A DNA stretch of 64,000 nt from an uncultured Actinomycetota bacterium. GTDB lineage: Bacteria > Actinomycetota > Actinomycetes > CAVWCF01. Each line of letters begins with the position of its first letter. Positions within the stretch are counted from its first letter, which is position 1. The notes below the pieces were generated by a model. The model saw nothing but the letters and a program-made list of their open reading frames with translations. It did no database searches and was not told where the DNA came from. Below are positions 6,084 to 64,000 of the stretch, piece after piece. A program made the position numbers and the translations under genes. The stretch lies in the NCBI GenBank assembly GCA_963818455.1, contig CAWFSE010000009.1, forward strand, positions 107,325 to 171,324, in the 5' to 3' direction.

Positions 6084-6127
6084 GCCGGCCACCGCCGCAC
6101 GGGCCCGTCCGCCCGTACGCTGCGGGG

Positions 6128-7267: not shown

Positions 7268-7281
7268 GCGTGGACCGCGCG

Positions 7282-8666: not shown

Positions 8667-8675
8667 GGTCGGGGT

Positions 8676-10476: not shown

Positions 10477-10574
10477 CGGGAAGCTGTTGTCATCTGCGTC
10501 GTCGCCAAGGGCCATGGCGCAACTCTGTGCGGGGAGCGGGCTGCCGCGCAAGGCGGCAGACGGTCGGGACTGGC

Positions 10575-11827: not shown

Positions 11828-11843
11828 GGCCGCGCCGATCCTG

Positions 11844-13826: not shown

Positions 13827-13833
13827 GGCCGGG

Positions 13834-15267: not shown

Positions 15268-15388
15268 CCCAGGACCGTACGACGAGGGTGGCCCGGACGC
15301 ACCCCGCCGCCGCAGCCGCGGTGCTGTCGGCGAAGTTCGCCCGAAGGGGGGGCGCGGCGGGGCGGCCTCCTCAGGCAAGATCAATGCC

Positions 15389-16603: not shown

Positions 16604-16609
16604 CCGCCG

Positions 16610-21009: not shown

Positions 21010-21042
21010 ACCCCCAGCGTCGCACGGCGCCACACTCGCGTC

Positions 21043-22247: not shown

Positions 22248-22298
22248 AACGGCAAACTGAGGTTGACAATCCAGTAACTTGCGTTTCACACTTCAAGC

Positions 22299-23103: not shown

Positions 23104-23480
23104 CCCCGCCGGCCGGCGCCGCTCGCCGCGCGCCGCAGACCTGCCCGGTGTGCGCCGACGCGCTGGTGATCACCGGCCTGGGCTGCCAGTCGTGCGGCAC
23201 GGGCATCACCGGCGAGTTCGCCACCTGCTCGTACTGCGGGCTGTCCGACCAGGACCAGGAGGCGCTGCGGGCCTTCCTCGTCTCGCGCGGCAACATGCGC
23301 GAGCTCGCCGCGCACCTCGGCGTCTCGTACCCGACGGCCCGCCAGCGGTACGCCGACCTGCTGGCCCGGCTCGGCCTGGCCGCGCCCGCCGAGCCGGCGC
23401 CGGATCGCGCGCAGGTGCTGGCCGACCTGGCGGCCGGGACGATCTCGGTCGACGACGCCGAGGCCGCGCTGCGCGGGTGA
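23100..23480 (+). CDS. DUF2089-family zinc-ribbon/HTH protein
   Basis: GTG 23100 overlaps the upstream stop (GTGA). CPVCADALVITGLGCQSCGTGITGEF zinc ribbon, then LSDQDQEALRAFLVSRGNMRELAAHLGVSYPTARQRYADLL. Confidence 0.7.
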   Translation: MTPPAGAARRAPQTCPVCADALVITGLGCQSCGTGITGEFATCSYCGLSDQDQEALRAFLVSRGNMRELAAHLGVSYPTARQRYADLLARLGLAAPAEPAPDRAQVLADLAAGTISVDDAEAALRG

Positions 23481-23486
23481 GCCCGC

Positions 23487-23978
23487 TCAGCCGCCGGTGT
23501 AGGTCACGGCGTCGAGCACCTTGACGGTGAGCTCGCGGCCGTTGGGCAGCGAGTACGTCACCTCGCTGCCGATCGCCTGGCCCATCACGGCGCCGCCGAG
23601 CGGGGACTGCGGGGAGTAGACCGACAGCTCCGTGGTGCCGGCCGCCTCGCGGGAGCCGAGCAGGAACGTCTCCTCCTCGCCGTCCAGCGGCCCGCCGAGG
23701 AAGCGCACCGAGATGACCATGCCGGCCTGGGCGGTGCCGTCGGCGGCGGGCGCGTCGCCCACCTGGGCGGTCTCCAGCAGCTGCTTGAGCTGGCGCACCC
23801 GGGCCTCGTTCTTGCCCTGCTCCTCGCGCGCGGCGTGGTAGCCGCCGTTCTCCTTGAGGTCGCCCTCCTCGCGGGCCGCCTCGATCCGCACCTTGATCTC
23901 GTGGCGCCACGGGCCGGTGCGGTGGTCGTACTCGGCCTTGAGCTTGTCGTACGCGTCCTGGGACAGCCAGGTCGTCAC
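23487..23978 (-). CDS. greA: transcription elongation factor GreA
   Basis: 163 aa; GTG preceded by AAGGAG; EAAREEGDLKENGGYHAAREEQG coiled-coil motif and C-terminal FKBP-like domain. Confidence 0.95.
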   Translation of the reverse strand: MTTWLSQDAYDKLKAEYDHRTGPWRHEIKVRIEAAREEGDLKENGGYHAAREEQGKNEARVRQLKQLLETAQVGDAPAADGTAQAGMVISVRFLGGPLDGEEETFLLGSREAAGTTELSVYSPQSPLGGAVMGQAIGSEVTYSLPNGRELTVKVLDAVTYTGG

Positions 23979-24034
23979 GGCGGACTCCTTACGATGCGGG
24001 GTGCGGCAGGGAGCGAGGTGCGAAAGCGTCGAGG

Positions 24035-24450
24035 CTAGTCGAGCAGCCGGCAGGACTCGACCTTGCCCAGGATGGCCAGCCTGGTGGTCTCCAGGACGGT
24101 GTCGACGTAGGCCCGGGCCCCGCCGGCCGGCACGCGTGATGGTGCCGCTGCCGACGATGCGCGCGTCGAGGTCCTGGGCGACGACGGTGCACTCGGCCGC
24201 CTGCCCGTCCGGCTTGGTCACCTCGACCCGCACGGTCACCTCGCGGTCGGAGCGGACGTCGTAGGAGACCGTGAGCGCCCTCGACGCCGGGCTGCGCGCG
24301 GACGAAGGCGGCCCACACGAGCAGCGTGGCGGCGGTCAGCACGGCGAGTCCGGCGACGACGAGGACGGCCTTGCTCAGGGTGGAGCGGGGCGCGCGGCGG
24401 CCGTAGCGGGCGTCGAGGGCCTGCTCGACGGGCTCCTCCGGCTGGGCCAT
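24035..24450 (-). CDS. DUF4307 membrane-anchored protein (Rv1081c-like), two frame breaks
   Basis: [19 protein letters not shown] plus TM (ORF 23989..24594), [23 protein letters not shown] (head of ORF 23487..24239), end ...[11 protein letters not shown]-stop in a third frame. Confidence 0.6.
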
Positions 24451-24487
24451 CCGCTCGCCTCCATCCGTGGGTGGTCGGGGTGAGACG

Positions 24488-25446
24488 ATGGTGCCCGATC
24501 CCCAGCACACCGCCGAACACGAGGTCCCCCGCGTGCCCGAAACGCCGCTGCGCCTGCTCCATGTGCACGCGCACCCCGACGACGAGTCGAGCAAGGGCGC
24601 GGCCTCGACCGCCCGCTACGTCGCCGAGGGCGTCGAGGTGCTCGTGGTCTCCTGCACCGGAGGCGAGCGGGGCGATGTGCTCAACCCGGCGCTGGTCGAC
24701 GACCCCGCGGTGCTGGCCGATATCGCCGACGTCCGCCGCCATGAGATGGCCCGCGCGGCCGAGATCCTCGGCGTGCGGCACGCGTGGCTCGGGCTTCGTC
24801 GACTCCGGCTACCCGGAGGGCGACCCGCGCCCGCCCCTGCCGGAGGGCTGCTTCGCCGACCTGCCGCTCGAGGAGGTCACCGCGCCGCTCGTCGAGATCG
24901 TGCGCGCCTTCCGCCCGCACGTGATGACGACGTACGACGAGCACGGCGGCTACCCGCATCCCGACCACGTGCGCTGCCACGAGGTCGCGGTGGCGGCCTT
25001 CGACGCGGCCGGCGACCCCGACGCGTACCCCTCCGCCGGCGACCCCTGGCAGCCGCTCAAGCTCTACTACCACCTCACGTTCCACAAGCAGCGCCTGCAG
25101 GCCATGCACGAGGCGGTCCTGGCGGCCGGCCTCGAGTCGCCGTACGCCGACTGGCTGGCCGACTGGGTGGACAAGCCCGGCGACGCGGAGCGGCTGACCA
25201 CGCGGGTCGAGTGCGCCGAGTACTTCCCGGTCCGCGACGCCGCGCTGCTCGCGCACGCGACGCAGATCGACCCGGCGGGCCGCTGGTTCGCGATCCCGAT
25301 GGAGGTCCAGCAGGCCGCGTGGCCCAGCGAGGACTACCAGCGGGCGCGCTCGCTGGTCGACACGCCGCTGCCGGAGGACGATCTGTTCGCGGGCGTCCGC
25401 GAGCACCTCGCCAGCACGATCCCGATGTCATCTGGAGGACCGATGA
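24488..25446 (+). CDS. mca: mycothiol S-conjugate amidase (LmbE/MshB/Mca family); extra G at about 24791-24793; 3' end uncertain
   Basis: VHAHPDDE zinc-ligand motif (ORF 24467..25684), then [10 protein letters not shown]...[14 protein letters not shown] (ORF 24471..25868). As assembled it reads through into the next small ORF. Confidence 0.85.
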
Positions 25447-25684
25447 CCGCCCTGCTCTCGACCCTGTCCGCCGCCGAGCCGGTCGACCCCGATCGGGTCG
25501 GCGCCGGCACCCTGGGCTTCATCGTCTTCGCGTTCCTGGCGGTCGCGACCGTGCTCATCTTGTGGTTCATGACCCGTTCGATCCGCAAGGTGCCCAAGGA
25601 CCTCGACGTGCCGACCCACTCCAAGCGCCCGGCGCCGCTGCCGCTGGACCCCTCGCCGACCCGGCCGACGGCAAGGACGCGTAG
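25443..25684 (+). CDS. small single-TM membrane protein, one missing base near 25655
   Basis: GGAGGA then ATG 25443; hydrophobic [24 protein letters not shown]; the likely end ...[10 protein letters not shown]-stop is in the ORF 24467..25684 frame. Confidence 0.45.
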
Positions 25685-25743
25685 CGCGGAGCGCGGGCCA
25701 CCGGTCCGATGGGGCGGCGACGCGCCGGGCGGACCACGCAGGA

Positions 25744-25780
25744 GGCGGGGCCTGGGGAGTCATCCCGGGCCCCGCCTTTG
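25744..25780 (+). terminator. candidate intrinsic terminator between convergent genes
   Basis: GGCGGGGCC (25744-25752) pairs with GGCCCCGCC (25768-25776), followed by TTTG. Confidence 0.4.
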
Positions 25781-25809
25781 CGTGCGGCGGCGTCAGCCAG
25801 ATCCGCTAG

Positions 25810-27515
25810 CTACTCGGCGGCCTTGGCGAGCCGACCCGGGAGGGCGACGAGGGCGGCGCCCGCGGTGAGCAAGCAGCAGCGCGTAGCCGAGCAGGGCAGG
25901 GGTGCCGCTGGAGCCGGTCGCCGGCAGGGTGGCGGGCGAGGTCGGCCGGCGGCGGGGTGACCGGGGTGTCGAGCACCTCGGTCTTCGGCGGATCGGCGCA
26001 CGGCCGAGGTGGCCGGCGGGTAGGACACCGTGACGGTGGTCTCGGGGTTCACCTGGAACCGCACCTGGACGGTCGGGCGGACCCAGTCGTACTCGTCACC
26101 CGGGACCCACGTCCCGCCTTCGACAGCCGCCAGCCAGGCCAGTCGGTGGCCTTGCCGTCGGAGCCGACCGCGGCGCCGGGCCAGAGCAGCTCGCCCTCAA
26201 GCGGCTGGTCGGCGAAGACGACGTCGGCGCCACCGGCGTTGGGGTTCAAGAAGGTGATCGTCGAGGTCGTGTTCGGGGTCCCGGTGACCTTGATGCGCGT
26301 ACTTCAGGTACGGCGCGTCTTGGACGGCAGACCGGCATCCTTGAACGCGACCTCGATCGCCGGCGGCTGCTCGTTGCAGTCCTCTTCGGCGGCCGCGAAG
26401 GTGTGCTCGAACGTGGTGGTGGCGCCCTCGGCGAGGACGAGGTCGTCGTCGAGGGTGGCGGTGACGGTGACGGTCTGGCCGGGGCCGACCTCGCCGTCGG
26501 TGAGCGCGTAGGTGACGCCGTCGATCTGCCTCGCCGGTCCAGGAGGCGGTGTTGTCGTTGTCGCAGGTCGGGTCGGTGAAGGTGACCTGCGGGGTGACCT
26601 CGGTGGGCTCGGTCGCAGTAGGCGTCGGCGGCCGCGAAGGTGTGCTCGAACGTGGTCGTGGCGCCCTCGGCGAGGACGAGGCCGTAGTCGAGGGTGGCGG
26701 TGACGGTGACGGTCTGGCCGGGGCCGACCTCGCCGTCGGTGACCGCGTAGGTGACGCCGTCGATCGGCCTCGCCGGTCCAGGAGGCGGTGTTGTCGTTGT
26801 CGCAGGTCGGGTCGGTGAAGGTGACCTGCGGGGTGACCTCGGTGGGCTCGGCGCAGTGGCGTCGGCGGCGGCGAACGTGTGCTGCCACACGCTCTGGCCT
26901 GGGGCCAGCACGTAGCCGGCCTCGGCGGTGGCGGTCACCGTGACCGTCTCGCCCGGGGCGACGGTTCCGACGGTGGTGAACTTCACGCCGGTCACCGGGG
27001 TCGTCACGACGGCTGCGGTGTTGTCGTTGTCGCAGGTCGGGTCGGTGAAGGTCGGGGCTGCGGCGACGACCACGCTGGGGCGCGGGCTTCTTGCACACGA
27101 TCACGTGGCTGATGTTCTTGCCCGAGACGGTGCCGTAGAGCGCTCCAGGCGTCGGGTCGTAGAAGACGTCGTTCATCGTCGCCGACTTCAGGACGAGCAG
27201 CGAGAACACCTTGCCGGTCGGCGGGGTGCCCATCTGCCACACCGACTTGTCGCTGGCGAGCACCTTCCCGTGGCTGCCCCCGTCGATGGGGTCGCCGCTC
27301 TCGTGCTTCCAGCACTCGGTGGAGCCGTTCTCGCCCACCCAGAACGCGGGATTGTTCTCGGGTGCGTTCTGGCTCTGCTCGACCTGGCGGTCCGGCGTGC
27401 GGTCGACCGCGACGGCGGCGGAGGCCGGAGCGGCGAGGGCCATCGGCAGCACCAAGAAGGCCGTCGCGGCGCCGGCCATCCAGCGGCCGGTGCGGCCGCC
27501 GAGGGAGACGTTCAT
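25810..27515 (-). CDS. LPXTG-anchored secreted surface protein with tandem ~80-aa repeats; many frame breaks
   Basis: Signal peptide [35 protein letters not shown]. Repeats carry [12 protein letters not shown] ... [18 protein letters not shown] ... [14 protein letters not shown]. The C-terminal sorting signal TLPATGSSG plus a hydrophobic stretch plus RLAKAAE is visible at 25810-25930. Confidence 0.75.
26387..27060 (-). repeat. three tandem coding repeats (about 240, 240 and 231 bp) inside the LPXTG gene
   Basis: Units starting at 26387 and 26626 are nearly identical; GTGTTGTCGTTGTCGCAGGTCGGGTCGGTGAAGGT recurs at about 26548, 26788 and 27019. The observed 239-bp spacing implies an indel. Confidence 0.8.
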
Positions 27516-50533: not shown

Positions 50534-52222
50534 ATGTCAGTCGCTCCTGTAGTCGGTCTCGACCGCGAGACCCTCGACTTCACCCTTGAGGCCATTCGGG
50601 AGTTCGCGGCGCGGCACCTGCCCGACGAGCGCCTGCTCGAGCTGGATCACCTCGACGAGTGCCCGGTCGACACCGTCCGGCTCATGTGCGGCGAGGAGCT
50701 GGGGATCCAGCTGGTCTTCGTCCCCGAGGAGTACGGCGGCATGGGCGGCAGCGCCTTCGACGTCTACCGGGTCTGCGAGGTGATGGCCGGCATCGACCTG
50801 GGGGTGGCGACGAGCGTGCTCGCGACGTTCCTCGGCACCGACCCGATCACGGTCGGGGCCACCGAGGAGCAGAAGGCGCGCTGGCTCGGAGAGGTCGCCG
50901 AGGACGGCGCGCTCTTCGCGTACGGCGCGACCGAGCCGGAGGCCGGCAGCGACCTCGGCTCGCTGCGGACGAAGGCGACGCCGATCATGGACGGCGAGGT
51001 GGTGACCGGCTACCGGATCACCGGCCGCAAGCAGTGGATCAGCAACGGCGGGGTGGCCGACGGCTACACGATCCTGGCCAACGCCCCGGGCGGCCCGACC
51101 TGGTTCGTGGTCGAGCGGGGCGCGGAGGGCTTCACCCAGGCCAAGCCCGAGGACAAGCACGGGATCCGGCTGTCGAACACCGCGGCGCTCGTGCTCGAGG
51201 ACGTCGAGGTCGGCGCCGACGCCCTCGTGGGCGAGGTCGAGGGCCAGGGGCTGTGGCAGGCCCAGCAGGTCTTCGGCTACACCCGCCTCATGGTGGCGAC
51301 CTTCGGCCTCGGCGCCGGGTGGGCCGCGCTCGACCGCGCGATCACGTACTCCACGACCCGGATCCAGGCGGGCGGGCCGCTGTCGGAGAAGCAGGGCTAC
51401 ACCCACAAGCTGATCGTGCCCCACGCCGTGCGGCTGGAGGCGTCCCGCGCCTACATCGAGGAGACCGCCGAGCGCATCGACGCGGGGGAGGGCAGCCTCA
51501 ACACCGAGGGCGCGATCGCCAAGTACCTCGCGACCGAGAGCGGCAACGCCGCCGCCGACGCCAGCATCCAGGCGCTCGGCGGCTACGGCTACACCCGCGA
51601 GTACCTGGTCGAGAAGATCAAGCGCGACGTCCGCATCACGACGATCTACGAGGGCACCTCCGAGATCATGGAGATGACGATCGGCCGCGACCGCTGGCAG
51701 CAGCACCTCAAGACGCAAGGGGCGTACTACCACGACGCGGCGCGCGCCCTCGAGCGGCTGCACGGCTCCGCGCCGGCGGTCGGCGCCGACGTCGCCGCGC
51801 TCGGCCTGCACGCGCTGGGCGGGCTGCTTGAGCGGGCGCGGGTCGGCCGGCTGACCCGCCACCAGCACGTCCTGTTCCGCCTGGGCGAGCTGATCGCGTA
51901 CGCGGAGCCGGCGGCCTCCTTCGCCCGCCGCGCCGCGCGGGCCGCGACCGGGACGCTGTCGGACAAGGCCGAGCGCGGCTTCGACGCCGAGGGGCTCGCG
52001 ACGCTGTCGCGGATCTTCGCGCGCGAGGCCGCCGAGCGGGTCTCCACCGAGGGGATGCGCCTCGTGGTGGGCGCGGGCGGCGCCGACCCCGCGCACCTGC
52101 CCCAGCTGGCGCAGGCGCTTCGGGTGAGCGAGATCCAGGCCGCCCAGGTCGGCCTGATCCCCGACATGGATGCCGCGGTCGCCGCGGTCTACCGCCGAGC
52201 CGAGCACGGCCACCACGCGTGA
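50534..52222 (+). CDS. acyl-CoA dehydrogenase with ~165-aa C-terminal extension; first gene of the PKS/FAS-like locus
   Basis: In-frame ATG 50534 in ORF 50075..52222, 562 aa, no frame break; ACAD motifs [28 protein letters not shown], followed by a helical Ala/Arg-rich tail. Confidence 0.85.
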
Positions 52223-52280
52223 CCGACCCGACCCCTCCCGCCCCGCACCGAACCGCCCCCCACCCGCAGGAGAGCACGCC

Positions 52281-55215
52281 ATGACCGTCGGAGCTGTTGA
52301 GGACTACGCCCACCGGGCCGTCGCGATCGTCGGGGTGGGCGCGGTGCTGCCGGACGCCCTCGACGCGGGCGCGTTCTGGGCGAACATCACCGGCGGCCGC
52401 TACAGCATCACCGACGTGCCGGACGGGCGCTGGGACCCGGCGCTCTACTACGACGCCGACCCGAACGCGCCGGAGAAGACGTACTCGAAGATCGGCGGCT
52501 GGGTCCGCGAGTTCGACTGGAACCCGCTGGGCTGGAAGCTGCCGATCCCGCCGCTGGTCTCCGCGGCGATGGACGAGGGGCAGAAGTGGGCGGTCGCCTG
52601 CACGCGCGCCGCCCTCATCGACTCCGGCTGGCCCGAGCGGCCGCTCGACCACGAGCGCACCGCGGTCATCTTCGGCAACGCCATCGCCGGCGAGAAGCAC
52701 TACCTCACCGCGCTGCGGATCAGCTTCCCCGAGTTCGCGCAGAGCCTTGAGCAGTCGCCCAGCTTCGCCGCGCTGCCCGCAGACGTCCGGGCGGCGCTGA
52801 TCGCCGAGTCCCACGACCGGATGATGGCCGCGACGCCGCCGATCACCGAGGACACGATGCCCGGCGAGCTCGGCAACGTGCTCGCCGGTCGGATCGCGAA
52901 CCTCTTCGACTTCCGCGGCCCCAACTTCGTCACCGACGCCGCGTGCGCCTCGGCGATGGCCGCGATCAGCGCCGGCGTCGACGGGCTGCTCGACCACGAC
53001 TTCGACGCCGTGGTCACCGGCGGCATCGACCGCAACATGAGCGCCGCGACCTTCGTGAAGTTCTGCAAGATCGGCGCGCTGTCGGCGACCGGCACCCGGC
53101 CCTACGCCGACGGCGCCGACGGCTTCGTGATGGGCGAGGGCGCGGCGGTCTTCGTGCTCAAGCGGCTCGCCGACGCCGAGCGCGCCGGCGACCGGATCTA
53201 CGCGGTGCTGCGCGGCATCGGCGGCTCCAGCGACGGCAAGGGCAAGGGGATCACCGCGCCCAACCCGATCGGGCAGCGGCTCGCGGTCGAGCGCGCCTGG
53301 CGGCAGGCGGGACTCAGCCCGGCGACCGCGACGCTGGTCGAGGGGCACGGCACCTCGACGCGGGTCGGCGACGTGGTCGAGGTCGAGGGGCTCATGTCGG
53401 TCTTCGGGGCGGCCGGGGCGGCTCAGGGGTCGATCGCGCTCGGCTCGGTGAAGTCGAACATCGGGCATCTCAAGGCCGCCGCCGGCGCGGCCGGGCTGCT
53501 CAAGGCGGCCCTCGCGCTGCACCACAAGGTGCTGCCGCCGAGCCTGAACTTCGCCGCGCCCAACCCCAACATCGACTTCGCCGCAGGCCCGTTCCGGGTC
53601 AACACCGAGCTGCGCGCGTGGCCGACGCCCCCGAGCGGCGTGCGGCGCGCCGGCGTCAGCGCGTTCGGCTTCGGCGGCACCAACTTCCACGTCGTGCTCG
53701 AGGAGTACGTCCCCGGCCGCCTCCGCGCGGGCACGACGAGGACCTTCGCCGCCTCGGCGCCCGCGCCGGCCGCGGTCAGCGCCGCCGCGGACCCCGGGCC
53801 CGCCAAGGCCCCGCTCCGCGGCGCTGGTCGTCCTCGGCGCGGCCGACGAGGCCTCGCTCGCCGACCGACTCGGGCGCGTCGCCGACGCCGCTGGCCGGGC
53901 GACGCCCCAGCGCCGGCCGCGCCGGCCGCCGCCGACCTGGCCGCACCCGATCCGGCTCGCCATCGATTTCGCCGACGCCGCGGAGCTGGCCGACAAGGCG
54001 GGCAAGGCCAAGGCGGCGCTCGCCGCAGGCCAGCCGGCCATCTGGCGGGCGCTGCGCGCCCGCGGCATCTTCCTCGGCCGCGGCGCCGCCCCGAAGGTCG
54101 CGTTCCTCTACACCGGCCAGGGCTCGCAGTACGTCAACATGCTCAAGCAGCTGCGCGCCACCGAGCCGATCGTCGCCGCGACCTTCGCCGAGGCGGACCG
54201 GGTGATGACGCCGCTGCTCGGCCGGCCGCTGACCGACTACATCTTCGTCGACGCCGAGGACCCGGCCGCGGTCAAGCAGCTGGAGGAGGAGCTGCTGCAG
54301 ACCGAGATCACCCAGCCGGCGGTGCTCGCCACCGACATCGCGCTCTACCGGCTGCTGCGGCCTACGGCGTCGACCCGGACATGGTGATGGGCCACAGCCT
54401 CGGCGAGTACGCCGCGCTGGTCGCGGCGGGGTCGCTGTCCTTCGCCTCGGCGCTCGAGGCGGTCAGCGCGCGCGGGCACGAGATGGCGACGCTGTCCGTC
54501 GGCGACAACGGCGCCATGGCGGCGGTCTTCGCGCCGCTCGCCGAGATCGAGCGCATCGTCGACGCGGCCGAGGGCTACGTCGTGGTCGCCAACGTCAACA
54601 GCACCAGCCAGGCGGTGATCGGCGGCGCCACGGCGGCCGTCGAGGGCGCGATGGGCGCCTTCGCCGAGGCGGGCTTCACCGCGGTGCGCATCCCGGTGAG
54701 CCACGCGTTCCACACCTCGATCGTGGCCCCGGCGAGCGAGCCCTTGAAGGTGGCGCTGGCCCGCATGGAGCTGCGGGCCCCGGTGCGCCCGATCGTCGCC
54801 AACGTCGACGGCGCGTTCTACCCGACGGGGCCCGGGGCCGACGAGCAGATGCTCGACATCCTCGGCCGCCAGGTCGCCGCGCCGGTGCAGTTCGTCCACG
54901 GGCTGGAGACCCTGTACGACGCGGGCGCCCGCGTGTTCGTCGAGGTCGGCCCGAAGCGCGCGCTGCACGGCTTCGCCGAGGACGTCCTCGGCGCCGACCC
55001 ACGACGACGCCCAGGCGCTGTTCACCAACCACCCCAAGGCCGGCGACGTGCCGTCGTTCAACCAGGCGCTGTCCGGGCTGTACGCGGCCGGCCTCGGCAC
55101 CCCCGCACCCGCCGCCGCATCGCCGCGCCTGCCCCGCCCCCCGCCGCGGTCCCCCCGCCCCCCGCCGCGACCCCCCCGACCGCGTCGACCCCCGCCCGTT
55201 CTGGAGCCGCCATGA
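52281..55215 (+). CDS. type I FAS/PKS protein, KS-AT (PfaA-N-terminus-like); 3-4 frame breaks; may be fused to the next gene
   Basis: AGGAG then ATG 52281. KS and AT motifs are listed in the domain features. The TGA at 55213-55215 overlaps the next ATG (ATGA) in one frame; in another frame an Ala/Pro linker reads through. Confidence 0.85.
52320..53708 (+). other. ketosynthase domain 1 (C-H-H triad present)
   Basis: [12 protein letters not shown] (Cys), [37 protein letters not shown]. Confidence 0.85.
54090..54990 (+). other. acyltransferase (malonyl-type) domain
   Basis: [10 protein letters not shown], active-site [16 protein letters not shown] (HAFH, associated with malonyl specificity). 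Confidence 0.85.
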
Positions 55216-58200
55216 CCACCGACCGCTACGTCGAGCTCGGCCACCTGTTCGCCGACTTCCTCGAGCACGGTCGCGAGATCATGGAGGGCACCGCCCCCGC
55301 GGCGCGCGGCGGGTCGGGAACCGGGCCGATGGAGCCCGTCGTCATCACCGGCGCCGCGCTCGGGCTGCCCGGGACCGACCGGGTGTTCGACGACCACAAC
55401 GTGGCGCGGCTGCTCGGCGGCGAGCAGCTGATCGACCTCATCCCCACCCGGTTCCGGCACAAGATCCTGGACAAGCACATCACCCGGCTGGTCAAGGGCG
55501 ACGGGGGCGGGCGGTTCGAGTCCATCGACGACCCAGCCGACGTGCTCAAGCTGGCCGGCCGCGCCGGGCAGCTCGACCTCGTCGAGGAGTTCGGCGTCGA
55601 CCCCGAGCGCGACCGCGCGCTCGACACCGTCACCCGGCTCGCGATCGGCGCCGGCTTCGACGCGCTGCGCGACGCGGGGATCCCGCTCGTCCAGCACTAC
55701 CGGCTCACCTCGCTGGGCACCCAGCTGCCCTCGCGCTGGGGCCTGCCGGACTCGATGCGCGACGACACCGGGGTGATCTTCGCCTCCGCGTTCCCCGGGT
55801 TTGACGCCTTCGCCGACGAGCTCGAGCGCCACTACACCGACCAGGGCCGCCGCCATGAGCTTGAGGGGCTGCGGTCGCTGCGGGCCCGGGTGACGGACGC
55901 CGAGCCGGTCGCCGCCGAGCTCGACCACCGCACCCGCGAGCTCGAGGCGCTGCTCGCCGAGGAGGGCTACGAGTTCGACCGCCGCTTCCTGTTCCGCGTG
56001 CTGTCGATGGGGCACTCGCAGTTCGCCGAGATCATCGGCGCCCGCGGGCCGAACACCCAGGTGAACTCCGCCTGCGCGAGCACCACGCAGGCCATCGCCC
56101 TGGCCGAGGACTGGATCCGCGCCGGCCGCTGCCGCCGGGTCGTCATCGTCGCCGGTGACGACGTCACCGCCGACCACCTCGTCGACTGGGTCGGCGCCGG
56201 CTTCCTCGCGTCCGGCGCCGCGGCCACCGACGACGTCGTCGAGAACGCGGCGCTGCCGTTCGACAACCGACGGCACGGGATGATCATGGGCATGGGGGCC
56301 GCCGGCCTCGTGGTCGAGTCGGCGGAGGCGGCCCGCGAGCGCGGGATCCAGCCGATCTGCGAGGTGCTGTCGTCCGTCACGGCCAACAGCGCCTTCCACG
56401 GCACCCGGCTCGACGTCGAGCACATCGGCCAGGTGATGGAGAGCCTGGTCGCCCAGGCCGAGGCGCGCGGCGTACGCCGGCACGAGATCGCGCCGGAGAC
56501 GGTCTTCGTCTCGCACGAGACGTACACCCCGGCACGCGGCGGCAGCGCCGCGGCCGAGATCAACGCGCTGCGGCAGGTCTTCGGCGCCGACGCCGACCGG
56601 ATCGTCATCGCCAACACCAAGGGGTTCACCGGCCACCCGATGGGCGTGGGCATCGAGGACGTCGTCGCGGTCAAGGCGCTGGAGACCGGCCTCGTGCCGC
56701 CGATCCCCAACTTCCGCGAGATCGACCCCGAGCTCGGCCAGCTCAACCTGTCGACCGGCGGCGCGTACCCGGTGCGCTATGCGCTGCGGCTGGCCGCCGG
56801 ATTCGGCTCGCAGATCAGCATGACGCTGCTGCGCTGGACCCCGGTGCCCGACGGCGCCCACCGCGAGCCGACCGAGTTGGGCTACGGCTACCGCGTCGTC
56901 GACCCGGCGGCATGGGGGGCGTGGCTGCGCGGCCTGAGCGGGCAGGACGACCCGCAGCTCGAGGTCGTCCAGCGGCGCCTGCGCGTGGTGGACCGCGGTT
57001 GGTCCGCGCCGAGGACGGCTCCCGCGGCGCCGGCCGTGCCGGTGGCGGTCGCCAGCAGCGCCTCCGGTCGCGCCCGGTCGCGCCGGTCGCGCCCGGTCGT
57101 GCCGGTCGCTCGCGGCCGCGGCGCCGCCGGCGCTGCCGGCGGCGCCGGCGGGGGTGGACCCGGTGGTGGCCGAGGTGCTGTCGGTGGTGTCGGAGAAGAC
57201 CGGCTACCCGCAGGAGATGCTGGATCTGGACCTGGATCTGGAGGCGGACCTGGGCGTCGACACGGTGAAGCAGGCGGAGGTGTTCGCCGCGATCCGGGAG
57301 ACGTTCGCGATCGAGCGGGACGACTCGCTGCAGCTGCGGGACTACCCGACGCTGACGCATGTGGTCGGGTTCGTCCGGGACCGGGGGCACGAACCTGCCG
57401 GCGGCCGCGCCCGCCGCTGCCGCCGCCGCGGCCGGCCGCTCCGGCGGCTGCCGGCGGCGCCGGCGGGGGTGGACCCGGTGGTGGCCGAGGTGCTGTCGGT
57501 GGTGTCGGAGAAGACCGGCTACCCGCAGGAGATGCTGGATCTGGACCTGGATCTGGAGGCGGACCTGGGCGTCGACACGGTGAAGCAGGCGGAGGTGTTC
57601 GCCGCGATCCGGGAGACGTTCGCGATCGAGCGGGACGACTCGCTGCAGCTGCGGGACTACCCGACGCTGACGCATGTGGTCGGGTTCGTCCGGGACCGGG
57701 GGACGAACCTGCCGGCGGCCGCGCCGGCCGGCGCGCCGGTCGTGCCGGCCGCGCCGGCCGCTGCTGGCGGCGCCGGCGGGGGTGGACCCGGTGGTGGCCG
57801 AGGTGCTGTCGGTGGTGTCGGAGAAGACCGGCTACCCGCAGGAGATGCTGGATCTGGACCTGGATCTGGAGGCGGACCTGGGCGTCGACACGGTGAAGCA
57901 GGCGGAGGTGTTCGCCGCGATCCGGGAGACGTTCGCGATCGAGCGGGACGACTCGCTGCAGCTGCGGGACTACCCGACGCTGACGCATGTGGTCGGGTTC
58001 GTCCGGGACCGGGGGACGAACCTGCCGGCGGCCGCGCCCGCCGGCGTGCCGTCGCCGCCGGCCGCTGCCGCGGCTGCTGGCGGCGCCGGCGGGGGTGGAC
58101 CCGGTGGTGGCCGAGGTGCTGTCGGTGGTGTCGGAGAAGACCGGCTACCCGCAGGAGATGCTGGATCTGGACCTGGATCTGGAGGCGGACCTGGGCGTCG

Positions 58201-60919
58201 ACACGGTGAAGCAGGCGGAGGTGTTCGCCGCGATCCGGGAGACGTTCGCGATCGAGCGGGACGACTCGCTGCAGCTGCGGGACTACCCGACGCTGACGCA
58301 TGTGGTCGGGTTCGTCCGGGACCGGGCGACCACCCTCCCGGCTGGTGGCGTCGGACGCCGCGGCGTCGTCGCCCGCGGCCGCCCTGCCGGAGGTCCCGGT
58401 GCTGTCCGGCAGCCTGGAGGCCGCCGAGCAGATCCCGCGGCGGGTGCCCGTTCCGGTGCTCCGCCCGGCCCTCGACCGGTGCCGCCCCACCGGGGTGCGG
58501 CTGGACGAGGCCGCCCGCGTCGTGGTCATGGCCGACCAGGGCGGCGTGGGCGACGCGCTGGTCAGCCAGCTCGGCAAGCTCGGCGTCGCCGTGCTCGCAG
58601 TCACCGACGCGCCCGACGCCGAGACGCTGGGCCAGCGGTTGGCCGACTTCAGCGCGGACGGTCCGGTCACGGGCGTGTACTGGCTGCCGGCCCTCGACGC
58701 CGAGGGCCCGGTCGGCGGAGCTGGACCTCGACGCCTGGCACGAGGCCCTGCGGATCCGGGTCGGGCTGCTGTACACGACGATGCGTGCCGTCGCCGACGG
58801 CTCGCCGTTCCTGGTCGCGGCGACTCGGCTGGGCGGGCAGCACGGCTACGACCCGGCCGGGGCGGTCAACCCGCTCGGCGGCGCGGTCACCGGGTTCGCC
58901 AAGGCGTACGCGCCGGGAGGCCGCCGACGCGCTCGTCAAGGCGGTCGACCTGGCGCCGAGCCGCAAGACCGCGGCGTTGGCCGAGCTGCTGATCGGCGAG
59001 ACCCTGCGTGATCCCGGCTGCGTCGAGGTCGGCTACGCCGACGAGCGAGCGCTGGACGATCGGGCTGGAGGAGCGGCCGGCCGACGACGGCCGGCCGGGC
59101 TCACCCTCGACGGGTCGACGGTCTACGTGGTCACCGGCGCGGCCGGCAGCATCGTCTCGGCGATCGTGGCCGACCTCGCCAAGGCCGGCGGGGGCGGCGT
59201 CTTCCACCTGCTGGACCTCACGCCGGAGCCGGACCCGTCCGACCCCGACCTGGTGCGGTACGCGACCGACCGCGAGGGCCTCAAGCAGGACCTGATCGCC
59301 CGCCACAAGGCGGCGGGGGAGAAGGTCACCCCGGTGGCCGTGGAGCGCGAGCTCGCCGCCCTGGAGCGGCGCAGCGCGGCGCTGGCCGCCATCGAGGCCG
59401 TCGCCGCGGCGGGCGGCCAGGCGATCTACCACAGCGTCGACCTGGGCGATGTCGCCGCCGTGGGCGCCGTCATGGACGAGGCGCTGCAGCACTCCGGCCG
59501 GGTCGATGTGCTGGTGCACGCCGCCGGCATCGAGATCAGCCGACGGCTGGCCAACAAGGAGCCGGACGAGTTCAACCGGGTGTTCGCCGTGAAGAGCGAC
59601 GGCTGGTTCGCGCTGATGTCCGCCCTGCGCGGGCGCCCGCTCGGCGCGGTGGTGGCCTTCAGCTCGGTGGCCGGACGGTTCGGCAACCTGGGCCAGACCG
59701 ACTACGCCGCAGGCAACGACCTGCTGTGCAAGCTCGCCGTCGAACCTGCGCACGTCGCAGCCGGACACCCGCGGGATCGCCATCGACTGGACCGCCTGGG
59801 GCGGTATCGGCATGGCCACCCGCGGCTCGATCCCGGTGATGATGGAGGCGGCCGGCATCGACATGCTGCCGCCCGAGGCCGGGATCGCCACCGTGCGGCG
59901 CGAGCTGATCTCCGGCGGCACGAGCGACGAGATCGTCGTCGCCCAGCGGCTGGGGATCATGACCGCCGAGTACGCCGAGGCCGGCGGGCTCGACGTCGAC
60001 GCGATCGACGTGTCCGCCGCAGGCCCCATGATCGGCCAGGTGGTCGAGATGGGCGTGCACAGCGGGCTGGTCGTGGAGACCACGTTGGATCCGACGGCTC
60101 AGCCGTTCCTGGACCACCACCGGATCTCGGGGACCCCTGTCCTGCCAGGCGTCATGGGGATGGAGGCCTTCGCCGAGTTGGCCCGGCTCGCCTTCCCGGA
60201 CCGCCACGTCGTGGCGATCGAGGACGTCGACTTCCTGCGGCCGCTGAAGTTCTACCGCGATGAGCCGCGCACGCTGCGGATCAGCGCCACCTTCGTACGG
60301 GATGGCGACGACGTCGTCGCGCGGTGCCGGCTCGAGGCCAGCCGCACGCTGCCCGGACGCGACGAGCCCGAGGTGACGACGCACTTCACCGGTCGGGTCC
60401 GGTTGGCAGGCGCACGCCGCCTGCCGAGGCGACCGGCCAGGCGCCGGGCGACCCGTCCGGGCCCAGCGTGGGCCAGGGACCCGTGTACGAGGTCCTCTTC
60501 CATGGCCCGGCCTACCAGGTGGTCGACGACGTGTGGCGTGACGGCTCGGCGATCCTCGGCCGCTACGCAGAAGGGCTGGTCCCCGGCCACCAGCCCGGAC
60601 TCGCAGCCGACGGTCACCGATCCGCGGCTCGTCGAGCTGTGCTTCCAGACGGCGGCCGTGGCCGCCCTGGCCGAGCACGGGCTGCTGGCGCTGCCCGCGC
60701 ACGTCGACCGCGTGGTCGTGCTCGCGCATCCGGCCGAGCCGGCTGGCCGCCTCGTGGCGGCGACGGCCGAGGGCGCCGGCGGAGGGGTCGACGCCGAGGT
60801 GCGTCGACGGCGAGGGGCGGGTGTTCGTGCGGTTGGAGGGCTACCGCACGATCGAGCTGCCGCAGGCGGTCGATGAGGCGCTGCTGGCGCCGCTGCGCGC
60901 CGTGGCCTCGGCGGGTTGA
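55212..60919 (+). CDS. type I FAS/PKS protein, KS - 4x ACP-like - KR - DH; at least 6 frame breaks
   Basis: ATG 55212 ([10 protein letters not shown]). Pieces lie in ORFs 52170..57896, 57154..58209, 57674..59011, 57987..60263, 58300..58992, 59812..60876 and 60324..61490. Ends ...[12 protein letters not shown]-stop at 60917-60919. Confidence 0.85.
55335..56840 (+). other. ketosynthase domain 2 (atypical; Cys present, so not a CLF)
   Basis: [13 protein letters not shown], long insertion before the active site, [11 protein letters not shown] (Cys), VSHETYTP in place of [18 protein letters not shown]. Confidence 0.75.
57141..58330 (+). repeat. four tandem ACP-like carrier domains; ~245-bp cores nucleotide-identical, period 315/313/313 bp
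   Basis: Core GGCGCCGGCGGGGGTGGACCC...TTCGTCCGGGACCGGG starts at about 57141, 57456, 57769 and 58082. Each encodes [77 protein letters not shown]. Ala/Pro linkers differ by indels. Confidence 0.9.
59120..59830 (+). other. ketoreductase (SDR) catalytic subdomain; structural subdomain about 58380-59100
   Basis: [13 protein letters not shown] Rossmann motif, [20 protein letters not shown] (Ser/Tyr/Asn). Confidence 0.8.
60030..60900 (+). other. PKS-type (double hot-dog) dehydratase domain
   Basis: [21 protein letters not shown] (HxxxGxxxxP); second half [16 protein letters not shown]. Confidence 0.75.
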
Positions 60920-60924
60920 GCGCC

Positions 60925-63900
60925 ATGTCGAGTGCCATGGCCCAGACTGCGGATCGACCGCCCCTGCCGTTCCGGCGGCTGGCCCTGCTCGGCCGCGGCC
61001 CGGCCGCGGTCCGGCTGCTCGACGCCATCGCCGAGCTCGGGCCTCAGCGGCCGGCGACCCTGGCCCTGCACGTCGACGCCGATCGGCAGTCCCGGTACGT
61101 GCGGGACGCCGACGAGGCCTACGGGATCGGTCCGAGCGTGGGCGATCTGGCCCTGGTCGAGGCGGCCCTGCGCGAGTCGGGAGCCGACTCCGTGTGGCTC
61201 GGGCGGGGCCTCGGCCCCGCCCTGCGCGGCATCTGCGAGGTGAGCCAGCGGCTCGGCCTCGTCGTGGTCGGGCCGTCGCTGGAGGTGCTGGACCGCCTCG
61301 GCGACCCGATCGGGGTGAAGCTGCTGGCCGAGGAGCTGGGGATCACCTCCGTACCGTGGTCCGAGGGCCAGGTCGAGGACGTCGAGAGCGCGTTGGGCTG
61401 GGCGGCCCGGCTGGGCTACCCGCTCTTCGTCAAGGCCGCCGCAGCCGGCCGGGACGGGCTTGGCGTCCGCCGGGTCTCCTCGGCGGCTGACCTGCCGGGG
61501 GCCTTCGAGGCGGTCCGCTCCGAGGCCGGCCTGCTGTTCGGCGACGCCCGGGTGTTCCTTGAGCAGAAGGTCCCCGAGGCGCGGCACCTCGGGGTCCAGG
61601 TGATCTCCGACGGCCAGGGCACGGTGTGGGCCGCGGGTCTGTGCGAGTGCACCCTGCAGCGCCGCAACCGGACCATCGTGGAGGAGTCGGCTTCCCCCGG
61701 CCTGCCCGGCCCCGCGGGTCGCCGAGCTCTGCGACGCCGCGTCCCGCCTCGCGGCGGCCACCGGCTTCACCGGGGTCGGGACCGTGGAGTTCCTGGTCGG
61801 CCCGGACGACGCGCCAGCCCTGCTGCTCGGCGTGGACACGCAACTGGGCGCCGAGCACGGCGTGACCGAGGTCGTCACCGGCCTCGACCTGGTCAAGTGC
61901 GGGCTGGAGGTCGCGGCCGGCCGGCGCCTCCCGGGCGATCACCCCGAGCCGTCGGGGCACGCGGTGTCCGTGCGGCTGCGCGCGGAGGACCCCGAGCGCG
62001 GGTTCGTCCCCACCCCGGGCCGGATCCGCCAGCTGAGGCTCCCGTCCGGACCAGGGCTGCGGGTCGACGCGGGCGTCGCCGAGGGCGACGTCGTGCCCAC
62101 CGGTCTGGACCCGATCCTCGCCACCCTCGTCGCCTGGGGGCAGGACCGCGCGGAGGCGATCGCCAGGCTGGTACGCGGGCTTCGCCAGACCACGGTCGTC
62201 ATCGACGGCGGCGGCACGAACAAGGCGTTCCTGCTCGCGGTGCTCAACCATCCGGACTTCGCGCTCGGCCGGCTGGACACCGGCTGGCTGGACCGCGGGA
62301 TCGCCGACCGCACGCTCTTCCCCATGGAGCACGCCGAGGTCGCCCTGCTGCAGGCCGCGATCGACGCCTACGCGACCGACCACGAGCTGGCGCGCAAGGC
62401 CTTCTTCGCGACGGCCGCCCGCGGCCGGCCCGAGGCCCGCCGCGACCAGGGGCACCGGATCAGGTTCCGCTACCGGGGCCAAGAGGTGCCGCTGCGCGTG
62501 CTGCGGCTCGGTCCGCACGACTACCGGATCGACACCGGTGCGCGCCGGCTCGATCTGACGGTCACCCCGCGCGGACCCCTGGAGAGCCTGCTCACGGTCG
62601 GCGGCCGCCAGGTGCGCACGCTGTCGGTGGTGGACGGGCCGGTGCACTCGGTCGAGGTCGAGGGGGTCACCCACACCTTCACCCGTGACGACGGCGGCAC
62701 CGTGCGCGCCCCCGCCCCGGGCGTCGTGTTGGCGCTGCCGGTCCGCCCCGGCGACCGCGTCGCGGTGGGCGACACCATCGCGGTGCTCGAGGCGATGAAG
62801 ATGGAGACCGCGGTCGCCGCGCCGTTCGCCGGCCGGGTCCGCTCGGTGGCGGCGCTGGTCAACTCCCAGGTCGACTCCGGGCAGGCGCTGCTCGAGCTCG
62901 AGCTCGGCGAGGACCAGACCGCCCCCGACCCCGGCGACGCGCCCACGGCGCAGCAGCTCGACCTCGCCCTGCCTGAGCTGGCCGAGGGCGACCCGGAGCC
63001 GACGAGCCCCGGCCTGGTGCTCGAGACCCTGCATGCGTACCTGCTCGGCTACGACACCGACCCCAAGGACATCCAGCGCCTCGTCACCCGCGCGGGCGGC
63101 CCGCTGGCCGACCTGCCGGTCGATGACCCGCAGGTCATGGACCGGGAGGGCGAGATCCTTCGGCTCTTCGCCGACCTCTGCGCCCTCTCGCGCCGCCAGC
63201 ACGAGGGCGACGACGACGACGAGCAGGCCCTGGCCCGGAGCCCGCAGGAGTACTTCGCGTCGTACCTGCGCGCGCCCGGTCGCTCGCGCGACACGCTGCC
63301 CGCCCCCTTCCTGGACCGGCTGCGGCGGGTGCTCGCCCGGTACGGCGTCCCGGGCCTGGAGCCGTCACCGGCCCTCGACGAGGCTCTGCTGCGCATCTTC
63401 CGGGCCCAGCAGCGGCTCGGTGAGGCGGTGCCCGTGATCGCGTCCCTGCTGGAGCGGGGGATCGCCAACCGCGACCGGATGATGCGTCGGGTGGGCGACC
63501 TGGACGCCGTCCGCAGGCTGCTCGACCGGCTCGTGGCCGCCACCGACGGCCGCTACCCGACGATCGCCGACCTCGCCCAAGAGGCGCAGTTCCGGTGGTT
63601 CGCCGAGCCGGAGGTCGAGCGGGTCCAGGCCCTGGGGTACGCCACGGCCGAGACCTCCTACGCGGCGCTGCGTCGCGACCCGGACGGACCGGAGCGGGCG
63701 GACCTCATCGCCAGCCTGGTCTCCTGCCCGCAGCCCCTGCGCCCGCTGCTGCAGCGGTGGTACCGAGGCTGCCGGACCGGAGCTCCAGGGCGCGCTGCTG
63801 GAGACGGCCGTCCGCCGCTACTACCGGATCCGGGCGATCGAGAACGTCGCGACCGCAGACCGTGAACGGCGTGCCGATCTGCACGGCCGACTACGCGCAC

Positions 63901-64000
63901 GAGGGCCACCAGGTGCACCTGGTGATGGCGTACGTCCCGCTGGAGGGGCTGGCCGCGCTCGCCAACGGGCTCCGCGGGCACCTCGCCGACGTCCCCGCCG
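60925..64000 (+). CDS. single-chain acetyl/acyl-CoA-carboxylase-like protein (BC-like, biotinyl domain, ACC-central-like region; CT expected beyond the window); partial, at least 3 frame breaks
   Basis: ATG 60925, 5 nt after the DH stop. ATP-grasp BC-like region in ORFs 60916..62688 and 61784..63865; biotinyl motif AVLEAMKMETAV at about 62780-62815. The long helical region continues to the window edge. Confidence 0.8.

Follow-up and report, generated by a model that had tools for sequence, protein, structure and literature searches.

To our knowledge, all characterised carrier proteins bear their cofactor on a Ser residue, and the biochemistry of fatty acids, polyketides, and non-ribosomal peptides takes Ser priming to be universal. 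The systems closest to the locus described here are PfaA of the PUFA synthases, e.g. that of Photobacterium profundum (PMC3585217), with its beads-on-a-string array of 3–10 near-identical ACPs between AT and KR-DH, and the Type R clusters of Shulse and Allen (2011), in which a pfaA homologue with the order KS-MAT-CLF-ACP(3–6)-KR is followed by a PPTase gene (PMC3098273). In the Koribacter Type R cluster, an ACC gene lies between the synthase and PPTase genes; the hosts of this type are given as Acidobacteria, Elusimicrobia, and Chloroflexi, and the word threonine does not occur in that paper (PMC3098273). As to the attachment residue itself, the S36T variant of E. coli AcpP, which has the Ser-to-Thr change discussed below at the same position of the ACP fold, is neither modified nor able to complement (PMC3340395).

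Domain architecture of the synthase and organization of its cluster

The carrier array studied here belongs to a PfaA-like megasynthase encoded in the window (the whole stretch of DNA analysed, 64 kb; Table 1). Its architecture, shared by the relatives, is that of the Type R synthases, with the order KS-MAT-CLF-ACP(3–6)-KR (PMC3098273). The ACP region of PfaA is the best NCBIfam match of the array, and the resemblance extends to the near-identical repeated ACPs with their Ala/Pro linkers, to the placement of the array between AT and KR-DH, and to the sequence context (LE-DLGID-x-[IV]K) and the ACP fold. The protein does not qualify as PfaA: its N-terminal 1620 aa, the part scanned, score 536.7 bits with the profile TIGR02813, for which the cut-off is 1010. 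Unlike PfaA, it has an additional KS-like domain (KS2) ahead of the array and reads DTVKQAE with Thr in place of DSIKRVEIL with Ser; moreover, pfaB/C/D (AT, KS-CLF-DH-FabA, and ER) do not adjoin it, either here or in Planobispora takensis (locus L017), where genes for an acyl-CoA dehydrogenase and a giant carboxylase are found instead. The family also departs from the description of Type R clusters (PMC3098273) in being abundant in Actinomycetota too, and in that its 'CLF' (KS2) keeps Cys-His-His, with the ACAS Cys, HET His, and TGH His retained as judged from conservation across 54 homologues.

The conserved gene order of the cluster is acyl-CoA dehydrogenase, synthase, single-chain acyl-CoA carboxylase, and Sfp-type PPTase, the last being seen in the relatives. 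The product of the first gene is 65% identical over 554 aa with that of the gene at the same position in P. takensis, and may supply enoyl reductase or desaturase activity in trans. The synthase orthologues in isolates are single intact ORFs (2644 aa in L017 and 2786 aa in L002), and the carboxylase counterpart in L017 has 1826 aa.

Table 1. Features of the synthase locus (positions in the window)
Feature	Position	Strand	Remarks
Acyl-CoA dehydrogenase-family gene (~561 aa)	50537–52222	+	Frame intact; Pfam Acyl-CoA_dh_N/M/1
PfaA-like 'Type R' megasynthase, KS-AT-KS2-ACPx4-KR-DH	52281–60919	+	Start ATG 52281, stop TGA 60917; Pfam, NCBIfam, tblastn, frameshift-tolerant alignment
KS1 (ketoacyl-synt N and C domains, C-terminal extension)	52314–53774	+	Residues 49–535 of the ORF from 52170
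Acyltransferase domain, frame-split	54103–54956	+	GQGSQ part in frame 1 (54103–54333); GHSLGE part in frame 0 (from 54360)
KS2, second KS-like domain ('CLF' of Shulse and Allen)	55770–56840	+	Partial Thiolase_N and ACP_syn_III matches
Carrier domain 1	57151–57385	+	Frame 1 (position modulo 3); Thr codon ACG 57262–57264
Ala/Pro linker 1	57386–57452	+	~3 extra bases: GGGGGCACG vs GGGGGACG in other copies
Carrier domain 2	57466–57700	+	Frame 1; Thr codon ACG 57577–57579
Linker 2	57701–57765		Net +1
Carrier domain 3	57779–58013	+	Frame 2; Thr codon ACG 57890–57892
Linker 3	58014–58078		Net +1
Carrier domain 4	58092–58326	+	Frame 0; Thr codon ACG 58203–58205
Ketoreductase (KR/SDR) domain	59121–59800	+
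PKS-type dehydratase (PKS_DH_N and PS-DH)	60025–60765	+
Giant single-chain biotin carboxylase, 5' part (BC-BCCP-ACC_central-CT)	60925–64000	+	Runs off the window

Carrier units with Thr at the attachment position

Tandem Repeats Finder detected one array at 57125–58342 (period, 313; 3.9 copies; 97% matches). As assembled, it contains four carrier cores that are 100% identical over 248 bp (57138–57385, 57453–57700, 57766–58013, and 58079–58326; core-to-core spacings of 315, 313, and 313), close to the ~245 bp of nucleotide identity given in the original prediction, and a comparison of the four units confirmed its further statement that the Ala/Pro linkers alone differ. Concerted evolution, which it had put forward for the cores, fits the relatives, in which the intra-array core identity is 71–100% and four identical cores occur at one other locus. 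The identical cores here would likewise be a product of concerted evolution, and their identity could be exaggerated by joint polishing of the repeats in an error-prone assembly.

Each unit matched PF00550 with 32.7 bits (cut-off, 20.8) over profile positions 2–66 of 67. In HMMER alignments with solved ACPs and E. coli AcpP (PigH, LGVDSIALAE; S. coelicolor ACP, LDVDSLSMVE; AcpP, DLGADSLDT), the Thr (ACG) of each unit is located on the phosphopantetheinyl-Ser column, as had been predicted for all four copies; the conserved Ser (D-S-[LI]) of PF00550 carriers is thus replaced by Thr in 4/4. The AlphaFold (AF2) model of the carrier unit (pLDDT 81) adopts the four-helix ACP fold and places the attachment residue, Thr42, at the N-terminus of helix II, and the top 50 Foldseek matches of the model were exclusively ACPs (TM, 0.80–0.89; root-mean-squared deviation, 1.4–1.7 Å). 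All four are genuine carrier domains of the ACP fold, and the Thr at the canonical Ser position is real.

We also surveyed the columns of the Thr-type domains for an alternative conserved Ser and found none exceeding 23% Ser, while the Asp at –1, the hydrophobic residue at +1, and the acidic residue of helix II are conserved. Thr21 (in the TGYP motif) and Thr71 (in YPTL) are likewise invariant in the family alignment, as would be expected if phosphopantetheine were borne by one of these hydroxyls and Thr42 were merely structural. This arrangement is highly improbable; Thr21 and Thr71 occur in different structural contexts, whereas Thr42, at the N-terminus of helix II behind an invariant Asp, has the geometry of all PPTase–carrier complexes, and the natural Ser variant described in the following section falls on the Thr42 column.

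Thr as the hallmark of the family

The motif DLG[IV]DTVKQAE with its Thr is the hallmark of a very large, uncharacterised enzyme family, and is under purifying selection. A phmmer search over 1.84 billion protein representatives gave 6316 matches. The 150 best-matching proteins contain 611 domains, of which 420 have Thr and 174 have Ser, the Ser domains having mostly the canonical PfaA motif DSIKRVE, and 116 of the 150 proteins are Thr-only. When 120 homologues were picked via the KS2 region alone, and hence without selection on the ACP, Thr was found in all of their domains (214/214), with a single ACP in many of the proteins. Both counts are free of the ascertainment bias that affects the 278/278 Thr count in 80 genome loci, because the pattern by which those loci were fetched itself contains Thr. 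In the same pattern-fetched loci, the Thr codons are ACC (143), ACG (121), ACA (8), and ACT (6), mixed within 29 of the 80 arrays, and TCN, one transversion away, never occurs.

The Thr type goes with the KS2-containing architecture (32/5 vs 1/15; Fisher p = 3.5 × 10−8). One KS2-containing lineage (P0107) has Ser at the same column (DSVKVAE, five times), an argument for this column being the functional site. The P0107 contig, inspected for a neighbouring PPTase gene, stops ~500 bp past the synthase gene. Some related arrays finish with a clearly degenerate ACP-like domain (Ala, Gln, or Asp at the site). Family members among cultured Actinomycetota include Planobispora, Nonomuraea, Actinoplanes, and Amycolatopsis.

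The original prediction had left a choice between unusual carriers and a faulty sequence; as regards the Thr, its family-wide occurrence bears out the former branch and speaks against the latter. That ACG is a sequencing or consensus error polished into four repeats, the true residue being Ser, has a vanishingly small probability. Although this is an error-prone assembly whose four cores were perhaps polished jointly, the errors seen are indels rather than substitutions, hundreds of related domains across phyla have Thr, and metagenomic contigs near-identical over the repeat unit have no variant listed for the codon. Specifically, no variants were listed for codon 57577–57579 at a summed depth of roughly 550–1100 in four metagenomes. 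The prediction was to be given up if reads or orthologues had Ser at this codon, or if the PF00550 alignment placed a different, conserved Ser at the attachment position; since Thr is fixed family-wide and in the metagenomic contigs of near-identical relatives, and the domain has no alternative conserved Ser, neither is the case.

Frame breaks in the assembled sequence

The four carrier units lie in three different frames (1, 1, 2, and 0), and the assembled sequence is therefore frame-broken. In total, ~18 single-base indels break the megasynthase gene, including its AT, KR, and DH domains, and the carboxylase frame breaks near 61705–61724 and near 63760. In tblastn searches, intact homologues switched frames repeatedly across 52302–60901, and the ORF at 52170–57896 reads ACP copies 1–2 in the wrong frame. 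The breaks in the KS-AT linker and in AT, hidden from tblastn because frame 0 stays open, came to light through Pfam searches of the other frame, by reading the sequence directly, and in a frameshift-aware alignment.

Short-read contigs of 95–99% identical relatives carry compensating indels at about ten sites (54358, 57383, 58350, 58713/15, 58913, 59044, 59739, 60415 + 60417, 60599, and 60804). Relatives' contigs lack bases at 57383 and within 57433–57453, and their repeat period is 309, as seen in run X1. The comparison supports the earlier attribution of the 313-bp periods to indel errors. Like the other frame breaks, these departures from a multiple of 3 are most probably assembly indels and not biology. 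Programmed frameshifting was rejected, as the breaks occur in catalytic domains, run in both directions, and are not seen in isolates or short-read relatives.

The sequencing runs searched for reads of the organism itself contained at most 28% of the sequence words, all from relatives, and the call between assembly error and pseudogene therefore rests on relatives that are 1–5% diverged. It is very unlikely that the cluster is a decaying pseudogene with real frame breaks and relic Thr domains, as the ~18 breaks in 8.6 kb, the likewise broken adjoining carboxylase, and the lack of the organism's own reads among the runs searched might suggest. Against such decay, the frame-corrected gene has no in-frame stop in 2706 codons, with GC3 of 0.94–1.0 in each segment, the 95–99% identical relatives read intact at the same sites, and two unrelated genes in the window, for a PALP-domain enzyme and a PIG-L-domain protein, also have domain matches cut mid-profile. 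With the frame breaks taken as assembly noise, the locus should not be regarded as a pseudogene.

PPTase of the cluster and possible modification of the carriers

We found no PPTase gene in the 64-kb window, which ends inside the carboxylase gene; the cluster PPTase would lie past the window end, its gene being expected ~2.5 kb further on, behind the carboxylase gene. Among the related loci, 59 of 80 contain a PPTase-like ORF, as do 43 of the 46 with at least 9.5 kb downstream, the other three of these well-covered loci having none nearby. In L017, the gene is located at 18442–19194 (L017 coordinates). The motifs GxDxE and WxxKExxxK are present in 53/53 full-length cluster PPTases of the relatives, and the structure model of the L017 enzyme (pLDDT 93) has the two-lobed fold of Sfp, PptT, and AASDHPPT (Foldseek E = 3 × 10−13 to MuPPT, PptT, AASDHPPT, and Sfp; TM ~0.7 to 4qjl, 4u89, 2cg5, and 4mrt). 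The fold and Mg2+/CoA motifs of Sfp-type PPTases, as in Sfp, PptT/MuPPT, AASDHPPT, and PfaE, are thus found in the relatives' enzyme, with the assignment applying to the relatives and not to this genome. In sequence, the enzyme is only marginally similar to solved PPTases (E ~2 × 10−3, to AcpS only), and the substrate presumed for it has Thr. A search profile that detects E. coli AcpP at 2 × 10−12 revealed only one ACP-like domain besides the arrays within ±10 kb of the 80 arrays.

These findings bear on whether the Thr domains are modified at all. They might be degenerate spacers, scaffolds, or docking modules, with the acyl groups riding on a housekeeping ACP or CoA; AcpS refuses Thr in E. 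coli ACP (PMC3340395), Thr-linked phosphopantetheine is undocumented in the literature searched, and some arrays are closed by degenerate domains. We nevertheless consider this unlikely. The recognition face of helix II, including Asp-Thr-Val-Lys-Gln, is invariant across phyla, and a spacer would not be so constrained. A single Thr domain is the sole carrier of the synthase in many homologues, the copy-number amplification and concerted evolution mirror those of the working PfaA ACPs, and an Sfp-type PPTase, catalytically intact by its motifs, is co-located, with just the one other ACP-like domain detected within 10 kb across the 80 arrays.

Slightly less likely still is a different chemistry, in which the acyl group is attached directly to the Thr hydroxyl, or another CoA- or nucleotide-derived group is transferred by the PPTase-like enzyme. 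The conserved Thr and the unique Lys-Gln (DTVKQ versus DSIKR/DSL) point to an altered local environment, and the remote sequence similarity of the PPTase to solved enzymes would also fit. The PPTases, however, retain the Mg2+/CoA motifs and the Sfp fold, and the KS2-containing relative with Ser at the same site suggests ordinary phosphopantetheine chemistry. Moreover, in type I systems the active sites of KS, KR, and DH require an arm of ~18–20 Å, a distance that an oxoester placed directly at the surface of the domain could not span.

Proposed mechanism and significance

The explanation that we find the best, and consider probable, is that the units are Thr-type carriers of an iterative 'Type R' secondary-lipid synthase resembling the PUFA synthases, with the cofactor placed on Thr by the cluster PPTase and the indels arising from assembly. 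Because Thr is a fixed hallmark of the family, the cofactor is probably hung on this residue. In the proposed mechanism, the Sfp-type PPTase of the cluster would move 4'-phosphopantetheine from CoA to the O-gamma atom of Thr, giving O-phosphopantetheinyl-threonine; the tandem holo-carriers would then pass malonyl and acyl thioesters among KS/KS2, AT, KR, and DH, as in PfaA, and the extra carrier copies would allow higher flux. Replacement of Ser by Thr may render the carriers orthogonal to housekeeping AcpS-type enzymes, since these reject Thr in E. coli ACP. In contrast to the engineered S36T mutant, which in the sole direct experiment found on this substitution was not modified by AcpS and is non-functional (PMC3340395), the Thr here is fixed, selected, and travels with an Sfp-type PPTase.

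Full-text literature searches gave nothing relevant on DTVKQ, Thr-linked phosphopantetheine, or Ser-to-Thr carrier variants, and brought up no biochemical demonstration that any system bears phosphopantetheine on Thr; in a 2025 survey of PUFA-synthase-like systems, the conserved Ser alone is mentioned. Somewhat less firmly than the explanation as a whole, we lean towards the view that the family uses an O-(4'-phosphopantetheinyl)-threonine linkage, which a co-evolved Sfp-type PPTase would install. Carrier and PPTase would then form a natural orthogonal pair, and the linkage would be the first exception to Ser priming. Such a pair would be insulated from housekeeping AcpS, and perhaps also from ACP phosphodiesterase.

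Both annotation pipelines and PPTase tools, Sfp tagging among them, depend on Ser priming. If true, the Thr linkage would be a new post-translational linkage and would provide an orthogonal carrier/PPTase pair for engineering. The question is directly testable in cultured hosts (Planobispora takensis NBRC 109077 and Nonomuraea, Actinoplanes, and Amycolatopsis strains); of these, P. takensis NBRC 109077 has just one ACP. The linkage, if true, would occur in thousands of bacterial genomes, including those of cultured actinomycetes, and would mark an uncharacterised lipid pathway that is common among bacteria of soil, freshwater, and wastewater.

The synthase and its gene cluster

The four carrier units lie in a synthase gene preceded by an acyl-CoA dehydrogenase-family gene and followed by a biotin carboxylase gene (Table). 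Intact orthologues exist in cultured strains, and in the Planobispora takensis NBRC 109077 locus (L017) the gene order is acyl-CoA dehydrogenase, synthase, carboxylase, and PPTase, with a single-chain carboxylase similar in architecture to eukaryote-type ACC. This arrangement is the "Type R" secondary-lipid synthase cluster (Shulse & Allen 2011, PMC3098273), described as KS-MAT-CLF-ACP(3–6)-KR plus a PPTase, the two being separated by an ACC gene in Koribacter; threonine goes unmentioned in that paper. The Cys and both His motifs of the second KS-like domain (KS2, the "CLF" of that description) are kept at ≥95% across 54 homologues, and KS2 may be a working second ketosynthase, not a chain-length factor.

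Table. Features of the window and of the L017 locus (frame, position mod 3)
Feature	Position	Remarks
Window, PALP ORF	21470–22303	match starts at profile position 135 of 295
Window, PIG-L match	ORF 24111–25865	covers only profile 76–128
Window, acyl-CoA dehydrogenase-family gene	50537–52222	upstream of synthase
Window, synthase gene	ATG 52281 to TGA 60917	KS, AT, second KS-like, four carriers, KR, PKS-type DH
Window, KS2	55770–56840	catalytic Cys (NSACAST); His motifs SHETYTP, FTGHP
Window, core 1	57138–57385	Thr codon ACG at 57262; frame 1
Window, core 2	57453–57700	Thr codon ACG at 57577; frame 1
Window, core 3	57766–58013	Thr codon ACG at 57890; frame 2
Window, core 4	58079–58326	Thr codon ACG at 58203; frame 0
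Window, biotin carboxylase gene	from 60925, past window end	downstream of synthase
Logan contigs of relatives, extra base	54358
Logan contigs of relatives, bases absent	57383, 58350, 58713/58715, 58913, 59044, 59739, 60415+60417, 60599, 60804
L017, acyl-CoA dehydrogenase		549 aa
L017, synthase	5003–12937	2644 aa, one ORF; single carrier domain, Thr
L017, carboxylase	12965–18445	1826 aa; BC-BCCP-ACC_central-CT
L017, PPTase		251 aa; PF01648

Threonine occupies the attachment column

Each carrier unit, translated as [79 protein letters not shown], matches PF00550 with 32.7 bits (cut-off, 20.8), and its top NCBIfam match is to PfaA, in the ACP region. In HMMER alignments with solved ACPs, the window Thr is matched to the Ser in PigH (LGVDSIALAE) and in the Streptomyces coelicolor ACP (LDVDSLSMVE); with a family profile, E. 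coli AcpP, taken as a control, aligns at E = 2e-12, its Ser36 in the column of the window Thr. The AlphaFold model of the carrier (pLDDT, 81), for which 22 family members were used, places helices at residues 8–21, 42–56, and 72–85, helix II beginning at Thr42, and retrieved only acyl carrier proteins in Foldseek (top matches: target-normalised TM, 0.80–0.89; rmsd, 1.4–1.7 Å). The original prediction had therefore correctly placed Thr at the Ser36-equivalent position.

Threonine is fixed across the family

With phmmer, 6316 matches were found among 1.84 billion representative proteins, and the best 150 of these contain 611 domains, 420 with Thr and 174 with Ser (116 Thr-only, 31 Ser-only, and 3 mixed proteins); in these 150, Thr is accompanied by DTVKQAE/DTVKQVE, and Ser mostly by the canonical PfaA motif DSIKRVE. 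To avoid selection on the ACP, homologues were also sought with the KS2 region alone, taken from the intact orthologue of Planobispora: 106 of the 120 homologues have carrier domains (1–5 copies per protein), and all 214 scored domains bear Thr. The same holds for 278/278 scored domains of 80 named genome loci, a set biased by a fetch pattern that contained Thr. The family spans Actinomycetota, Chloroflexota, Acidobacteriota, Myxococcota, Gemmatimonadota, and others, and is present in many cultured actinomycetes.

The codons at the site are ACC (143), ACG (121), ACA (8), and ACT (6), mixed in 29 of the 80 arrays, and TCN, though one transversion away, occurs in none of them; this pattern indicates purifying selection on the Thr itself. 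In the Thr-type domains every other column has at most 23% Ser, and hence there is no alternative acceptor Ser among them. Public-metagenome contigs aligned to one repeat unit (summed depth roughly 550–1100 over the motif) show variants at neighbouring positions and list none at 57577–57579. The window Thr is neither a sequence error nor a local oddity, and the earlier suggestion of unusual or non-canonical carriers holds: Thr is a hallmark of the family, and one that we did not find described in the literature.

In representative proteins whose upstream sequence is long enough, KS2 precedes 32/37 Thr-type vs 1/16 Ser-type arrays (Fisher p = 3.5e-8). The sole Ser-type array with KS2 is that of P0107 (L081, 10001–19705), a synthase that shares the KS-AT-KS2 architecture and has five Ser carriers (DLGIDSVKVAE); this natural Ser variant within the Thr family, whose contig stops some 500 bp past the gene, shows that Ser and Thr share one functional column in this architecture. 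Several Thr-type arrays (P0023, P0027, P0079, and P0106) are closed by an extra, clearly degenerate ACP-like domain, possibly a docking or terminal module, where the site has A, Q, or D, or the S is displaced.

The repeat array and the quality of the assembly

Tandem Repeats Finder reports 57125–58342 as one tandem array (period, 313; 3.9 copies; 97% matches). Exact comparison confirmed that the four cores are 100% identical over 248 bp; they are spaced by 315, 313, and 313 bp, with the differences confined to the Ala/Pro-rich linkers. As assembled, the synthase gene is in frame 0 upstream of the carriers and in frame 1 downstream. Frameshift-aware alignment to an intact Amycolatopsis orthologue located about 18 single-base events in both directions between 53826 and 60781, several of them inside the AT, KR, and DH domains; the AT domain is split into a GQGSQ half in frame 1 and a GHSLGE half in frame 0, and the carboxylase gene is also frame-broken. 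The frame-corrected synthase has 0 stops in 2706 codons, and its GC3 stays near 1.0. Short-read (Logan) contigs of relatives from four unrelated metagenomes, 95–99% identical, carry compensating changes at the break sites given in the Table. One such contig crosses a linker with an in-frame period of 235+74 = 309 bp, and another joins 57093 to the first core through 11 nt in place of 43, a difference of 32 (33−1) consistent with a single surplus base in the window. The frame breaks are almost certainly assembly indels and the 313-bp periods are not biological, in line with the linker errors first suspected. Breaks extend beyond the synthase (20600–25900), where domain matches are cut mid-profile in two unrelated genes, which encode an enzyme with a PALP domain and a protein with a PIG-L domain. 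Indels seem to occur in the assembly at roughly one per kb. Some stretches are clean, such as the 1.65-kb dehydrogenase gene. The window is a poor-quality exemplar of the family, and cultured relatives are better material.

Among relatives, nucleotide identity within arrays ranges from 71 to 100%, with a pair at ≥99% in 18/68 loci and one other locus with four identical cores. Such identity makes strong concerted evolution plausible, while joint polishing of the copies, four as assembled, may have contributed to the identity in the window. Contigs 95–99% identical to 56400–64000 were found in metagenome runs X1, X3, X12, X2, and X6, with those of X1, X3, and X12 almost identical along one repeat unit; this organism, or others closely related to it, is therefore widespread in the habitats concerned (freshwater, wastewater, and wetland).

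The partner PPTase and a proposed priming mechanism

A PPTase-like ORF is found in 59/80 loci and in 43 of the 46 that continue for 9.5 kb or more past the last carrier; GxDxE and WxxKExxxK are kept in all 53 full-length cluster PPTases. The L017 enzyme is Sfp-type as modelled (pLDDT, 93), matching MuPPT, PptT, human AASDHPPT, and Sfp (E down to 3e-13; TM, about 0.7). When the ±10 kb around each of the 80 arrays was scanned with a profile that detects E. coli AcpP, a single further ACP-like domain was found; the Thr domains are therefore the only visible substrate of a conserved and catalytically intact PPTase. No PPTase gene lies in the 64 kb of the window; by synteny, it should follow the carboxylase about 2.5 kb beyond the window end. 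The placement of the ORF varies (L002, L005, L008, L010, L022, L042, L052, and L060): in a subset of actinobacterial loci it is convergent with the carboxylase, being encoded on the other strand, and in Chloroflexota/Acidobacteriota loci without the carboxylase it directly follows the synthase, about 3 kb past the last carrier.

We propose that the cluster PPTase would transfer phosphopantetheine to the Thr hydroxyl, and that the holo Thr domains would then function like PfaA ACPs. Phosphopantetheine linked to Thr was not found described in a literature search. The same substitution has been examined directly only in E. coli ACP S36T, a protein that could neither be modified nor complement (PMC3340395). 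Unmodified Thr domains would be pseudo-carriers, which we consider unlikely, and a different chemistry on the carrier Thr is slightly less likely again; attachment of phosphopantetheine at another residue of the carrier domain is very improbable. Under the proposed transfer, the E. coli result implies that a specialised PPTase would be needed for Thr carriers, and that Thr would insulate them from AcpS-type enzymes. The L017 synthase, with its one carrier, depends as a whole enzyme on a single Thr-type domain and offers a clean test object. Altogether, carrier-protein priming probably takes a new, variant form in this family, with Thr as its hallmark.
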